This document shows positions 5,831-11,165 of a DNA stretch of 64,000 nt, in pieces. The notes under the pieces are model-generated. The model made no database searches and was not told the DNA's origin. It worked only from the letters and a program-made list of their open reading frames with translations. This stretch comes from Thermoleophilaceae bacterium (GTDB lineage: Bacteria; Actinomycetota; Thermoleophilia; Solirubrobacterales; Thermoleophilaceae), in the NCBI GenBank assembly GCA_040901445.1, contig JBBDYQ010000004.1, positions 133,246 through 197,245 on the forward strand. Reading direction: 5' to 3'. The translations under genes were made by a program, and so were the position numbers. Every line of letters begins with the position of its first letter. Positions within the stretch are counted from its first letter, which is position 1.

Positions 5831-7183
5831 TCAGATGAGGCCGAGGGCGAGCATCGCCTCGGCCACTCGGACGAAGCCCGCGATGTTGGCGCCGGCCACG
5901 TAGTCGCCCGGCATCCCGTAGTCCGCGGCGGCCTCCGCGCAGGCGCTGTGGATCTCGCACACGATGTCGTGCAGCCGCTCCTCGGTGTGCTCGAACGTCC
6001 ACGAGTCGCGGGACGCGTTCTGCTGCATCTCGAGCGCGCTGGTGGCCACGCCGCCGGCATTCACGGCCTTGCCCGGGCCGAAGGCCACGCCGGCGTCGCG
6101 AAACGCCCGCACGGCCTCGGGCGTGCAGGGCATGTTCGCTCCCTCGCCCACGGCCACCACGCCGCCCGCCACGAGCGCTTCGGCGTCGCGCCCGGTGAGC
6201 TCGTTCTGGGTCGCGCACGGCAGCGCCACCCGGCAGGGCACCTCCCAGACGCTGCGACCCGGCACGAACCGCGCAGGGCTGCCGCGCCGCCGGGCGTACT
6301 CCGAGATGCGCTCGCGCTCGACCTCCTTGGCCTCCTTCAGGAGCTCGAGGTCGATGCCCTGTTCGTCGTGCACGTAACCGGACGAGTCCGAGCAGGCGAT
6401 CACCCGGCCGCCGAGCTGCTGCACCTTCTCGATGGCGTAGATGGCCACGTTGCCCGCGCCCGACACCGCGACGTCGGCGCCGTCGAAGGACGTGTCCCGA
6501 GCCGCCAGCATCTCCTGCACGAAGTAGGCGCAGCCGTAGCCGGTGGCCTCCCGGCGCACCCTGGCGCCGCCCCATTCGATGCCCTTGCCCGTGAGCACGC
6601 CGGATTCGTAGCGGTTGGCGATGCGCTTGTACTGGCCGAAGAGGTAGCCGATCTCGCGCTGCCCAACGCCGATGTCGCCGGCGGGCACGTCGGTGTGCTC
6701 TCCCAGGTGGCGGTGGAGCTCTGTCATGAACGACTGGCAGAAGCGCATGGCCTCGCCATCGGAGCGGCCCTTGGGCTCGAAGTCCGCGCCGCCCTTGGCG
6801 CCGCCGATCGGCATTCCGGTGAGGCTGTTCTTGAACACCTGCTCGAACCCGAGGAACTTGACGATCCCGAGGTTCACGGTGGGGTGGAAGCGCAGGCCGC
6901 CCTTGTAGGGGCCCAGCGCGCTGTTGAACTCCACGCGGAAGCCGCGGTTCACGTGCACCTCGCCGCGGTCGTCGGTCCACGGCACGCGGAAGATCACCTG
7001 CCGCTCCGGCTCGCAGATGCGCTCGAGCAGCTTGGCCTCGGCGTACTCGGGATGCTTGGCCACCACCGGGCCGACGCTCTCGAGCACCTCGCGCACGGCC
7101 TGGTGGAACTCGGGCTCGGCCGGGCTGCGCCGCAGCACCACCTCGTAGACCTGCTCGAGCTTCTCGTCGAGGCGCGCCGTCAC
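5831..7183 (-). CDS. gdhA: NADP-specific glutamate dehydrogenase
   Basis: ORF 5831..7261. [35 protein letters not shown] is diagnostic. GTG 7183 overlaps the stop of the upstream small ORF (GTGA); ATG 7213 is the alternative. Confidence 0.9.
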
Positions 7184-7509
7184 GAGCGAACGGAATCGCG
7201 GGCGGCGGCGCATGCCGCCGCGGCCGCTTCGAGAGCGTGCGCGAAGTGCCGGAGGTTCCACGGGCCCGCCTCGGCCGCCTGCTCGCCGCCGGGAACCTCG
7301 CGCGCCTCCAAACCGGCGGCTTGGCGCTCCGCGTAGCGCGCCAAGGCGGCCACCGCCGACTCCACGTTCTTCAGCGCGATGTCGAGGTTCGGCGGCCTGG
7401 CCTTGGTGGCCACGGCGGCGAAGCCGAGCCGCTCGGACGCCTCCTGGAGGTCACCCGCGCCGGGGGCCCGGCGGCTCCGGGATGCCGTTCTCGCCTGCTG
7501 CGATTCCAT
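7180..7509 (-). CDS. Small Ala-rich protein, unassigned family A, copy 1 (109 aa)
   Basis: Tail of track ORF 7180..7710 starting at ATG 7509. High third-position GC. Its stop overlaps the gdhA GTG. Paralogous to 10926..11165. Confidence 0.5.
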
Positions 7510-7539
7510 GCGGTGAGGATCGCCGCGTCCGGCGGCTCC

Positions 7540-7550
7540 GGGAATGGGTG
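7540..7550 (-). promoter_or_regulatory. CACCCATTCCC upstream motif, copy 2
   Basis: Identical 11-mer, 30 nt from ATG 7509. The flanks are also similar to copy 1. Confidence 0.5.
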
Positions 7551-7651
7551 AAAAGGTGCAAGTCACAGGGCCCCGGTTCCCCTTGGTCCCCGTTGCCAAT
7601 CCCGCCCGCGGCGAGGCAATGCACATGTCTGGCGCCTGAACTGCGCACTGC

Positions 7652-7662
7652 CACCCATTCCC
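7652..7662 (+). promoter_or_regulatory. CACCCATTCCC upstream motif, copy 3
   Basis: Identical 11-mer on the + strand, 31 nt before ATG 7694. Confidence 0.5.
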
Positions 7663-7693
7663 GGACGGGGTCGGAGAGCCCAGACTAAGTGGC

Positions 7694-8038
7694 ATGCAGC
7701 AGGTATCCATTCGGTGTCACCCATACGCTCCGGTCTCCACCGAGGAGCTGGAGCAGTGGCTCAGCCGTGAGGTCGAGCGGCTCCGGGCGGCAGCTCCCCA
7801 GGCGGCCTTCCGGTTGCTCCGTCTCACCCAGACGGTGCCCACAGGCGAGATGGATGTGGGGTGGCTGATCGAGCTCGACGCCGCCGGCGGCGAGCCCCCG
7901 TTCGACAGGGACGAACTGGCCGCGGTGCTCCGGGACATGCGCCTGCTGGGCCTTCAGCCCACGGTGCTGCGGGCATCTTCAGGGGGCGAGGACGCGGTGG
8001 GCGCGAACGTGAACGGAGGGGGCTCATGGTCCCGCTGA
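7694..8038 (+). CDS. Small protein, unassigned family B, copy 1 (114 aa)
   Basis: Track ORF with ATG start and coding-like GC3. Paralogous to 10497..10847. First gene of a coupled string leading into usp. Confidence 0.55.
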   Translation: MQQVSIRCHPYAPVSTEELEQWLSREVERLRAAAPQAAFRLLRLTQTVPTGEMDVGWLIELDAAGGEPPFDRDELAAVLRDMRLLGLQPTVLRASSGGEDAVGANVNGGGSWSR

Positions 8039-8217
8039 CGGCCGGAGGCATAACGAGGAGGATGCTTCTCCCCGCGCTCGTGGTGGCTTGCGGCTTCCTG
8101 CTGCTCGATGCGTCGCCTGGAATCGGGTGGGCGGTGATCGTCTTCGGCGCGTGGCTCGCCGCAGGCGCGGGCGGGCGCCGGAGACGACCTCCGGGCGCCC
8201 CTTCGGTGCGGCCGTGA
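8026..8217 (+). CDS. Small two-TM membrane protein (63 aa)
   Basis: ATG 8026 follows GGAGGGGG and overlaps the end of the previous gene. Two hydrophobic stretches (LLPALVVACGFLLL, GWAVIVFGAWLAAG). Its stop overlaps the usp GTG (GTGA). Confidence 0.4.
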   Translation: MVPLTAGGITRRMLLPALVVACGFLLLDASPGIGWAVIVFGAWLAAGAGGRRRRPPGAPSVRP

Positions 8218-9866: not shown

Positions 9867-10522
9867 CGGTTCCCCTCAAGACCAGGGTCCTGCTCGCGGA
9901 CGACCACGAGGTGGTCCGCAGCGGCCTGCGCATGGTCATCGACACCGTGCCCGACCTCGAGGTGGTGGCCGAGGCTTCCGACGGCGCCGAGGCGGTTGAG
10001 CGGGCGCTGGCCGAGGACGTGGACCTGGCCGTGCTCGACGTGTCGATGCCGCGCATGACCGGGCTGCAGGCCGCCGCCGAGCTCACGCGCCGCAAGCCCG
10101 ACATCCGCGTGCTCATGCTCTCGATGCACGACAACGAGCGCTACTTCTTCGAGGCGCTCAAGGCAGGTGCGTCCGGCTATGTGCTGAAGACCGCTGCGAA
10201 CCAGGATCTCATCGAGGCGTGCCGCGCGGCGATGCGCGGGGAGCCGTTCCTCTACCCGGCCGCCCTCACGGCCCTGATCCGCGACTACCTCGAGCGCGCC
10301 CGCAGCGGCGAGGAGACGCCCGAGGACCCGCTCAGCCCGCGCGAGCTCGAGGTGGTGAAGCTGATCGCCGAGGGCCACACGAGCGAGGAGATCGCGGAGA
10401 TGCTCTTCATCAGCAAGAAGACCGTCGATCGTCACCGCGCAAACATGCTCGAGAAGCTGGGCATGCGAAACCGGGTGGAGCTCACCCGCTACGCGATCAG
10501 GCGTGGGCTCGTGGAGCCCTGA
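9863..10522 (+). CDS. NarL/LuxR-family response regulator
   Basis: Receiver domain (VLLADDHEVVRSGL..DLAVLDVSMP) plus LuxR HTH (LSPRELEVVKLIAEGHTSEEIAEMLFISKKTVDRHRANMLEKLG). GTGA overlap with the kinase gene. Confidence 0.9.
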   Translation: MTVPLKTRVLLADDHEVVRSGLRMVIDTVPDLEVVAEASDGAEAVERALAEDVDLAVLDVSMPRMTGLQAAAELTRRKPDIRVLMLSMHDNERYFFEALKAGASGYVLKTAANQDLIEACRAAMRGEPFLYPAALTALIRDYLERARSGEETPEDPLSPRELEVVKLIAEGHTSEEIAEMLFISKKTVDRHRANMLEKLGMRNRVELTRYAIRRGLVEP

Positions 10523-10847
10523 CCGCCTCGGCGTTCTCGGACACGGCCGGCGAGAGGCCCAGCAACTCGAGCTCCTCGAGCAGCCACTGCAACCGCCGGG
10601 CGTGATCAGGATGGCACCGGAGCTCGACCGTCCATCCGCCCGGGTGCCGGCGAACGCTTGCGTCCTCGCAGGAGCCTTCCTCCTCCATTCTCAGGACACG
10701 GCGGAACAGCCACGCGTCGACCTCCTTCACCTCGGTCGCATCGCTGGCCTGGCAGCGGACGAGCAATCTCTCCATGGACGCCATCCTGGGCGGTCCCCAG
10801 GGGTGGCGCCATGGGTTCAATGGTGCGTTCGGAGGGGGGACGAACAT
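10497..10847 (-). CDS. Small protein, unassigned family B, copy 2
   Basis: Part of track ORF 10497..11105. ATG 10847 follows GGGAGG. ATG 10775 (MERLLVRCQ..) aligns better with the copy 1 N-terminus. The 3' end overlaps the regulator gene by 26 nt (convergent). Confidence 0.5.
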   Translation of the reverse strand: MFVPPPNAPLNPWRHPWGPPRMASMERLLVRCQASDATEVKEVDAWLFRRVLRMEEEGSCEDASVRRHPGGWTVELRCHPDHARRLQWLLEELELLGLSPAVSENAEAVRAPRAHA

Positions 10848-10868
10848 GCATGGGCCTCCCGACCCCCC

Positions 10869-10879
10869 GGAGATGGGTG
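10869..10879 (-). promoter_or_regulatory. CACCCATCTCC upstream motif, copy 4 (variant)
   Basis: Reverse complement of ggagatgggtg, 21 nt from ATG 10847. Forms an inverted pair with copy 5. Confidence 0.4.
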
Positions 10880-10884
10880 ACACA

Positions 10885-10894
10885 GACCATTCCC
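10885..10894 (+). promoter_or_regulatory. GACCATTCCC upstream motif, copy 5 (one C shorter)
   Basis: 31 nt before GTG 10926, the same spacing as copies 1-3. Confidence 0.4.
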
Positions 10895-10925
10895 GGGCAG
10901 CATCCCCCGCGCCACCATCGGCAAC

Positions 10926-11165
10926 GTGAACTCCCCTGCCGACAGGCTCCACGACAGCGCCCGCGATCTGCTCGAGGCCGCGCATGGCATCGCCGCCGCC
11001 GGCACGGCCGCCGGGGTGGAGCCGGCCATCCCCGCCGCCCTGGCGTGCATGGAGGAGTCGCTGGCCCTGCTCGCCCTGGGGGCCGACGCCATGGCTGGGC
11101 TTCACGATCTCGCCGCGGCCCTGCGCGAGGCCCGGCGGGCCTGCGAGCGCGCCGCTGTGGTCTAG
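10926..11165 (+). CDS. Small Ala-rich protein, unassigned family A, copy 2 (79 aa)
   Basis: Track ORF with GTG start and high GC3. Aligns by eye with 7180..7509, including a C-terminal ..AC..A.. segment. Confidence 0.45.
   Translation: MNSPADRLHDSARDLLEAAHGIAAAGTAAGVEPAIPAALACMEESLALLALGADAMAGLHDLAAALREARRACERAAVV

Follow-up and report, generated by a model that had tools for sequence, protein, structure and literature searches.

A candidate NarL-type two-component regulon with a palindromic box and predicted leaderless promoters in Thermoleophilia

The sensor kinases of the DevR/DosR system of Mycobacterium tuberculosis carry haem-binding GAF domains. In Escherichia coli, NarX-NarL and NarQ-NarP both pair a HAMP-bearing HisKA_3 kinase with a regulator composed of receiver (REC) and GerE domains, and NarL sites are arranged as 7-2-7. 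The LiaFSR and VraSR systems of Firmicutes are built on intramembrane-sensing kinases with two transmembrane (TM) helices and a short loop, encoded in autoregulated operons. DevR recognises a palindromic box of ~18 bp in its target promoters, counts universal stress protein (USP) genes among its targets and is autoregulated (PMC3177182), and the NarL heptamer has been given as TACYYMT (PMC4886647). Here we describe a locus that resembles each of these systems in part, found in a 64,000-nucleotide stretch of DNA (hereafter the window; G+C 72%) from a Thermoleophilaceae metagenome-assembled genome (MAG). It holds a gene for a universal stress protein (usp), a sensor histidine kinase (HK), a response regulator (RR), four small genes here called A1, A2, B1 and B2, the glutamate dehydrogenase gene gdhA and a GreA-like gene (Table 1). 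We consider it probable (roughly 0.68), judging from sequence comparison, that at least five transcription units are clustered at the locus and belong to one regulon, which is conserved across Thermoleophilia and has the local HK-RR pair as its controller.

The pair is of the NarL/FixJ two-component type, with REC and GerE domains in the RR and an adjoining gene for a HisKA_3/HATPase_c kinase. The solved structures nearest to the RR were VraR (E 1e-37), NarL and DevR (E 1e-33). In the HK, a loop of ~14 residues joins two TM helices, and HAMP, HisKA_3 and HATPase_c domains come next; because of this short-loop architecture and the lack of a recognisable sensory domain, the kinase was assigned to the intramembrane-sensing type. 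Unlike DevS-type kinases it has no GAF or haem domain, and unlike NarX and NarQ it has no periplasmic nitrate-sensing domain. The kinase architecture, a putatively autoregulated operon and VraR as the best match of the RR connect the pair with LiaFSR/VraSR, but no LiaF-like gene was seen here, just an unrelated peptide with two TM helices (2-TM peptide, 8026-8217), and the proposed targets (A, B, gdhA and the Gfh1-like gene) differ. The NCBIfam equivalog models were not matched at their cut-offs: LiaS scored 72 bits (cut-off 450), NarL 150.7 bits (cut-off 250) and NarX 74.8 bits (cut-off 578). MctR and MctS, the nearest NCBIfam model names, were rejected as well: their scores fell far short of the cut-offs, and the one paper located deals with a rhizobial system unrelated to this one.

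Five genes of the locus (A1, A2, B1, B2 and the GreA-like gene) share an upstream element, here called the box. It is an imperfect palindrome of 18-20 bp with the pattern rATGsA-N7-8-(A/C)CCCAT (consensus GATGCAGGCTGACACCCATTG), and its best copies are true palindromes, ATGGGCA-N4-TGCCCAT, an example being ATGGGCATTGATGCCCAT at L028, one of 43 related genome loci (numbered with the prefix L). Within the 64 kb, the 14-mer TCACCCATTCCCGG has four copies, all of them between 5788 and 10880, compared with an expected count of 0.45 for the window; none of 100 shuffles reached four copies. Beyond these copies, a scan with a position weight matrix (PWM) added the site at B2. Box 1 lies within a 59-nt repeat shared with the A1 promoter (78% identity). 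In the close relative L044, the orthologue of Box 2 stands before the A1 homologue and scored 18.9 bits, and another box lies 34 nt before an A2-like ATG (read at L044 5105-5125). The weakest of the five assignments is Box 5, whose minus-strand reading scored 8.7 bits and whose plus-strand reading scored <7; its spacing was read from the sequence. A start of B2 at ATG 10847 was rejected, since the box spacing fits ATG 10775, which is also the NCBI call. An Rfam scan of the whole window found nothing near the locus, which argues that the repeated element is not a known RNA motif. Two weak box-like PWM matches further along the window, at 50602-50622 (+, 10.8 bits) and 51796-51816 (+, 7.9 bits), both contain TGCTGGTGGACACCCA; they look like a coding repeat shared by paralogous genes rather than operators.

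The distance of the box from the downstream gene shows a sharp maximum. Measured from the T of CCCAT to the start codon of the open reading frame (ORF), it was 34 nt at 55 sites and 35 nt at 27. PWM sites of at least 8 bits numbered 167 in the loci and window, compared with 20 in shuffled DNA. Counting from the start codon, 73% of the sites have A at -11, 79% have T at -7 and 90% have C at -1. A -10 hexamer of the form nAnnnT thus covers -12 to -7, and the box spans about -54 to -35. A TANNNT-before-start signature has been used to call leaderless genes in Actinobacteria (PMC3160421). Because the hexamer is positioned so that the start codon would be the transcription start, the arrangement implies leaderless mRNAs. 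A search of 5100-11500 returned no sigma-70 -35/-10 consensus promoter, and no -35-like consensus was found at -35 to -30 across the sites; both results argue for activator dependence. A box covering the -35 region fits a dimeric activator in class II geometry. A SigH/SigR-type GGAAT -35 element was also considered and rejected, as it would point the wrong way at the GreA-like gene and a GTT -10 is missing.

The box and its promoter are conserved well beyond the window. The upstream regions of B genes align without gaps as rGGATGsA-N7-8-(A/C)ACCCAT(T/A), with constant spacing to the ATG, and the box was present at 40 of 43 aligned B-gene starts (drawn from the 43 genome loci and the window). 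It also precedes the HK-RR operon (8 loci), USP genes (6), GreA-like genes (5, with orthologues in four loci other than the window), ~10 A-family genes, genes resembling extracytoplasmic function (ECF) sigma factors (3 loci) and small winged helix-turn-helix (wHTH)-like genes (2 loci). B lies within 6 kb of an orthologous HK-RR pair in 35 of the 43 loci, the remainder being mostly truncated contigs or second B copies; across loci the RR is 77-87% identical and the HK 53-67%. A-family genes, by comparison, are found within 6 kb of B in only ~10 of 43, in varied orientations. That the small genes are tied to the sensory cassette, as the original prediction proposed from the window, is thus supported by a common box and promoter that also stand before the HK-RR operon and stress genes. 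A third small box-preceded family of 56-62 aa, with a shared motif and no Pfam match, was observed at L030 6442, L032 6379 and L033 1673 (+); it sits just downstream of B in Solirubrobacterales loci.

The operator was compared with those of the closest relatives of the RR. As in the DevR system, a NarL-family regulator goes together with a palindromic box of ~18-20 bp, USP targets and an operon that is probably autoregulated. The DevR box has GGGACT half-sites (PMC3177182), whereas the box here reads ATGsA...CCCAT and is not a DevR box. Tandem boxes are a hallmark of DevR, and most sites here look single. The proximal half-site, (T/C)ACCCAT, fits the NarL heptamer, but the arrangement of half-sites differs: in the best boxes (ATGGGnA-N4-TnCCCAT) the heptamers face the opposite way from those of the 7-2-7 site.

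The local RR is the best candidate for the protein that binds the box, because of the apparent autoregulation, the tight co-location, the palindromic site and a half-site that fits NarL. We infer RR binding and activation, like the leaderless starts, from sequence. In the model that we favour, a phosphorylated RR dimer on the box over the -35 region would recruit RNA polymerase (class II activation). The B1-2TM-usp-HK-RR operon, of which B1 is the first gene, would be one target, giving positive autoregulation, and the others in the window would be A1-gdhA, the Gfh1/GreA-like gene (possibly with ctaA), B2 and A2. A and B would be small cytoplasmic output proteins of the regulon. A is predicted to form three helices and has a conserved Cys; B, a predicted alpha/beta protein of ferredoxin-like fold, carries an invariant Arg-Cys pair together with Trp residues.

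A bolder version of this model, which we regard as unlikely, would make B, and perhaps A, dedicated small-protein effectors or feedback connectors of a Thermoleophilia-specific signalling system. No gene is linked to HK-RR more tightly than B, which either opens the operon or follows directly downstream, and a strong box nearly always precedes it. Acting as cysteine-based redox- or metal-sensitive proteins, the connectors would work on the kinase, the regulator or RNA polymerase, and together with the co-regulated Gfh1-like factor they would impose a dormancy-like state. If true, this would add a new small-protein layer, defined by two unannotated families, to a two-component system.

Several points weigh against the regulon model. 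Its recognition helix, compared by eye, is not identical to that of NarL or DevR, and for this reason the resemblance to the NarL heptamer is only suggestive. The PWM was trained on B promoters, so that high scores at B genes are circular; the sites at A1, B2 and A2 reached only 8.4-9.0 bits (<7 for A2 on the plus strand) and owe their assignment mainly to the spacing and a single conserved half-site. All 43 related loci were gathered through B. Moreover, the box could be bound instead by another conserved factor encoded elsewhere.

Such a factor might be a repressor or an activator, for example the winged-helix-like proteins of L014 and L018 or a distant regulator, and we likewise hold this to be unlikely. 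RR binding has been deduced from co-location and a family-typical site shape, wHTH-like genes stand behind boxes in two loci, and a site that overlaps the -35 region would suit a repressor too. However, wHTH-like genes were found in just those 2 of 43 loci and have no Pfam match, whereas in 8 loci a box stands before the HK-RR operon itself (with B as the first gene in the window and L044), a pattern that counts for the local RR because autoregulated two-component systems look this way. The missing sigma-70 and -35-like consensus sequences, with the activator dependence they suggest, count against this alternative as well.

It is quite improbable that the element is instead a promoter read by an alternative, ECF-type sigma factor, with ACCCAT as a -35-like sequence and the two-component system as merely one target. 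The rigid distance of the element from the deduced start site would suit this explanation, as would the ECF-sigma-like genes preceded by boxes in 3 loci, since autoregulated ECF sigma genes are arranged in this way. Nevertheless, the element is palindromic, as in ATGGGCATTGATGCCCAT at L028, its upstream ATG half-site is conserved too, and 22 nt separate its conserved 3' end from the -10 hexamer, a distance that exceeds usual -35/-10 spacers. In addition, no sigma gene lies nearby in most loci, while HK-RR is present in 35 of 43. Regulation by the local RR remains our preferred reading of the box.

Scans of A1, A2, B1, B2 and the 2-TM peptide against Pfam and NCBIfam gave only sub-threshold noise, in agreement with the original prediction, which could assign neither A nor B to a named family. 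B1, the founding member of an unannotated family, has no Pfam domain and had 808 homologues; the named ones come from Thermoleophilaceae, and all 43 genome loci are from Thermoleophilia MAGs. A core of ~92 residues is strongly conserved (I-R-C-H-P, W-L, G-W-L-I-E-L and R-D-M-R-L-L-G-L-Q-P-T), with I6 R7 C8, W22 L23, G56 W57, E60 and the motif R-L-x-G-L-x-P-T invariant in the family. The AlphaFold (AF2) model of B1 has a ferredoxin-like beta-alpha-beta-beta-alpha-beta topology (pLDDT 82). A Foldseek search of this model against the PDB returned only generic matches, such as ribosomal protein S6, EthD and CutA, which have a similar topology (TM-score ~0.35-0.57) at 8-17% identity; the conserved R-C-H-P, G-W and R-L-L-G-L-Q-P-T motifs are specific to B. 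A search of the PDB with the B sequence profile found no solved relative.

The proposed paralogy of B1 and B2 held in all four comparisons made. BLASTP aligned the two over 30 aa (E 3e-4), and the Smith-Waterman score was 70 compared with 27.5 +/- 4.9 for shuffles (z ~8.8; reached by 0 of 2000). The B-family profile matched B2 by hhalign with a probability of 95% (E 2.6e-8, 79 columns), and hmmsearch with the family recovered B2 among 6168 ORFs at E 6.9e-5, the next match being at 0.86. B2 lacks many of the family invariants, among them H9, P10, P13, R31, P35, R40 and T90, and a word-indexed homologue search of 5.8 billion proteins with B2 found only B2 itself. On this sequence evidence, B2 is a divergent B copy specific to this lineage.

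The status of the A family is less even. The family was recovered from the related loci, and an exhaustive search added homologues P0127-P0130. Its helix 1 reads L-x-D-x-A-x-D-L-L-x-A-A and helix 2, following A-x-P, reads L-x-x-x-E-x-x-L-x-L-L; a variable linker then leads to helix 3, in which a Cys is almost invariant. A2 clearly belongs to the family, matching at E 3.2e-12 among 6168 ORFs a hidden Markov model (HMM) built without A1 or A2. Its AF2 model, predicted from a 5-sequence alignment, has three helices (pLDDT 77), and a Foldseek search of the PDB with it returned nothing below E 1.7. The A profile matched only de novo designed coiled coils (E 3e-6) and, weakly, ESAT-6 in the PDB. These matches were judged compositional, and because of them Ala/Leu-rich helical similarity alone cannot be trusted.

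This caution applies to A1, which had only four homologues, 77-86% identical with a conserved core. Paralogy of A1 and A2, suggested by the original prediction, was not established. BLASTP found no match between them; the Smith-Waterman score was 48 against 35.5 +/- 5.9 for shuffles, with 72 of 2000 reaching it (p ~0.04), and the A-family HMM placed A1 at rank 15 of 6168 (E 0.38). The comparison of A1 with the family by hhalign gave a probability of 9% (score 23, P 0.0036), although this score exceeded those of 200 of 200 column shuffles (mean 10.2, maximum 15.3) and of the reversed alignment (12.9). The alignment is colinear and reproduces the blocks that had been matched by eye, and in our own reading 6 of 7 conserved A-family columns agree, the Cys included; the homology remains marginal. 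In the reciprocal direction, an HMM of A1 orthologues searched against all ORFs of the loci retrieved no A-family member. The sequences leave about an even chance that A1 belongs to the A family as a very divergent member.

A striking feature of the locus is its symmetry, with B genes facing inward towards the sensory cassette and A genes facing outward. This layout is real in the window but is not conserved in relatives. In L044, B, HK, RR, the A1-like gene, gdhA and the GreA-like gene follow one another on one strand and lead on to ctaA and ctaB, with a Nudix gene and then an A2-like gene running in the opposite direction from the other side of B, so that a single B accompanies both A1-type and A2-type genes. 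Despite the changed order, boxes are kept before B and the A1-like, GreA-like and A2-like genes. By blastn, the window and L044 are colinear from ctaB through A1 and again at A2, and the segment from B to RR is cleanly inverted, with breakpoints in box-bearing intergenic regions (window 7560-7634 and 10518-10850). The interval 10519-10849, which holds B2, has no counterpart in L044, where a Nudix gene is found; usp and the 2-TM ORF are absent from L044 too. In other loci, HK-RR is followed by B on the same strand, or B and RR-HK converge. The mirror layout is therefore lineage-specific and not a conserved design, and on sequence grounds it appears to be a by-product of the inversion difference together with a lineage-specific divergent B copy.

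Two observations accompany this rearrangement. A 29-nt inverted repeat (7537-7565 and 7637-7665, 76% complementary), made up of the promoter regions of A1 and B1, could have mediated the inversion. The A2-type gene lies directly downstream of, and overlaps, a Nudix hydrolase gene at L044 5112-5729 (-) and L047 552-1118 (+); in both loci the Nudix gene is divergent from B, and in the window it is missing, with B2 in its place.

That A and B form an obligate two-protein module, duplicated as an inverted cassette and acting as a physical pair, is the least probable explanation considered: the two divergent A/B pairs of the window, a further one in L040 and the conserved cysteines of both families are outweighed by the scarcity and varied order of A near B, the two A-type genes with one B in L044, the lack of a detectable B2 orthologue, the marginal A1/A2 homology and a symmetry that the inversion explains. 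Since A1-type and A2-type genes predate B2, duplication of an A/B unit is itself argued against. The earlier suggestion that the locus is one functional unit consequently stands for a regulon cluster and falls for a duplicated symmetric device.

The gene order and coordinates proposed earlier were borne out by the ORF list and Pfam scans (Table 1). GTGA overlaps are found at three junctions (A1 stop with gdhA GTG, 2-TM stop with the candidate usp GTG, and HK with RR), and the sequence suggests translational coupling at each; the coupling of A1 to gdhA noted by the original prediction corresponds to the first of these, and the A1-gdhA pair is kept in L044-L046. RR and B2 overlap by 26 nt at their 3' ends. 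Three lines of evidence support the four small ORFs as real genes. All show a coding G+C pattern, with a third-position value (GC3) of 0.83-0.91 and a second-position value (GC2) of ~0.5, which antisense ORFs lack; A1, B1 and B2 are annotated by NCBI; and ratios of non-synonymous to synonymous substitution (dN/dS) against L044, a rough Nei-Gojobori estimate, were 0.16 for A1, 0.27 for B1 and 0.35 for A2, compared with 0.22 for gdhA and 0.09 for RR. The 2-TM ORF overlaps both of its neighbours, B1 and usp, and is apparently not annotated by NCBI. Its peptide has weak tblastn matches in L020 and L037, a different small membrane ORF preceded by a box was seen in L015, and the peptide could be an accessory to the intramembrane-sensing kinase.

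Table 1. Genes and box copies of the locus, in window coordinates.
Feature	Position	Strand	Remarks
ctaA	4205-5197	-	31 nt downstream of GreA-like gene
Gfh1/GreA-like transcription factor gene	5229..5759	-	Pfam GreA_GreB_N and GreA_GreB; predicted leaderless ATG at 5759
Box 1 AATGGACCTTTTCACCCATTC	5792..5812	-	34 nt before GreA-like start codon; PWM 20.5 bits
gdhA, NADP-type glutamate dehydrogenase	5831..7183	-	Pfam ELFV_dehydrog E 4.7e-85; GTG start
A1, 109 aa	7180..7509	-	Ala-rich; conserved C-terminal Cys; GC3 0.88; NCBI-annotated
Box 2 CTTGCACCTTTTCACCCATTC	7542..7562	-	34 nt before A1 ATG; PWM 8.4 bits; right half-site perfect
Box 3 ACTGCGCACTGCCACCCATTC	7640..7660	+	35 nt before B1 ATG; PWM 18.6 bits
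B1, 114 aa	7694..8038	+	NCBI locus tag WD844_04545; ferredoxin-like fold predicted
Small 2-TM peptide ORF	8026..8217	+	Read from sequence; overlaps B1 3' end
usp, universal stress protein	~8214..8753	+	Pfam Usp E 1e-19; start uncertain, GTG 8214 proposed
HK, sensor histidine kinase	8757..9866	+	Pfam HAMP, HisKA_3, HATPase_c; two TM helices read from translation
RR, NarL/VraR-type response regulator	9863..10522	+	Pfam Response_reg E 5.9e-28, GerE E 1.1e-20
B2, 92 aa	10497..10775	-	NCBI-annotated; hhalign and HMM match to B family
Box 4 AACGCACCATTGAACCCATGG	10809..10829	-	35 nt before B2 ATG 10775; PWM 9.0 bits
Box 5 GAGATGGGTGACACAGACCATT	10870..10891	+	Palindrome; CCAT ends 35 nt before A2 GTG
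A2, 79 aa	10926..11165	+	A-family HMM E 3.2e-12; GTG start at 10926

The GreA-like protein scored below the NCBIfam GreA cut-offs, and its best solved relative is the anti-cleavage factor Gfh1; the match to Thermus Gfh1 was slightly stronger than that to E. coli GreA. E. coli GreA carries D41 and E44 as acidic tip residues. Read by eye, these positions are A and N in the GreA-like protein, and the position of E44 is N in the orthologues of the related loci. The protein may be, as far as its sequence indicates, a non-cleaving factor that binds the secondary channel of RNA polymerase. Directly downstream of its gene are the haem A genes ctaA/COX15 (4205-5197, -) and a UbiA-type ctaB; in L044 these genes and nearby cytochrome oxidase subunit genes fall in 1980-4552 and 10396-12284. 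These neighbours hint at a respiratory or oxygen link for the regulon.

Three further features of the window were observed. A 1022-aa protein encoded at 11412-14480 (-) has a long poly-proline tract and numerous GGxGxD-type repeats that resemble the calcium-binding repeats of RTX proteins, and a 62-aa ORF without a family match (11227-11415, -) overlaps its start codon. A ZMP/ZTP riboswitch aptamer is located at 34880-34965 (-; Rfam RF01750, 62 bits, above the gathering score).

Taken together, the mechanism proposed here would be of a known kind; the operator, the two small-protein families and a promoter grammar in which all units would be leaderless seem not to have been described before. 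The layout of the window illustrates that a striking mirror symmetry can come from inversion between similar promoters, without functional design. Thermoleophilia, Actinomycetota that are abundant in soil, have hardly been studied by experimental genetics, and the model would give the class a concrete, testable regulon. It defines an operator and a promoter grammar for genes that are predicted to be leaderless and activator-dependent, names a candidate regulator, and offers a target list that includes two widespread, unannotated small-protein families (B with >800 members) and a Gfh1-like RNA-polymerase factor.

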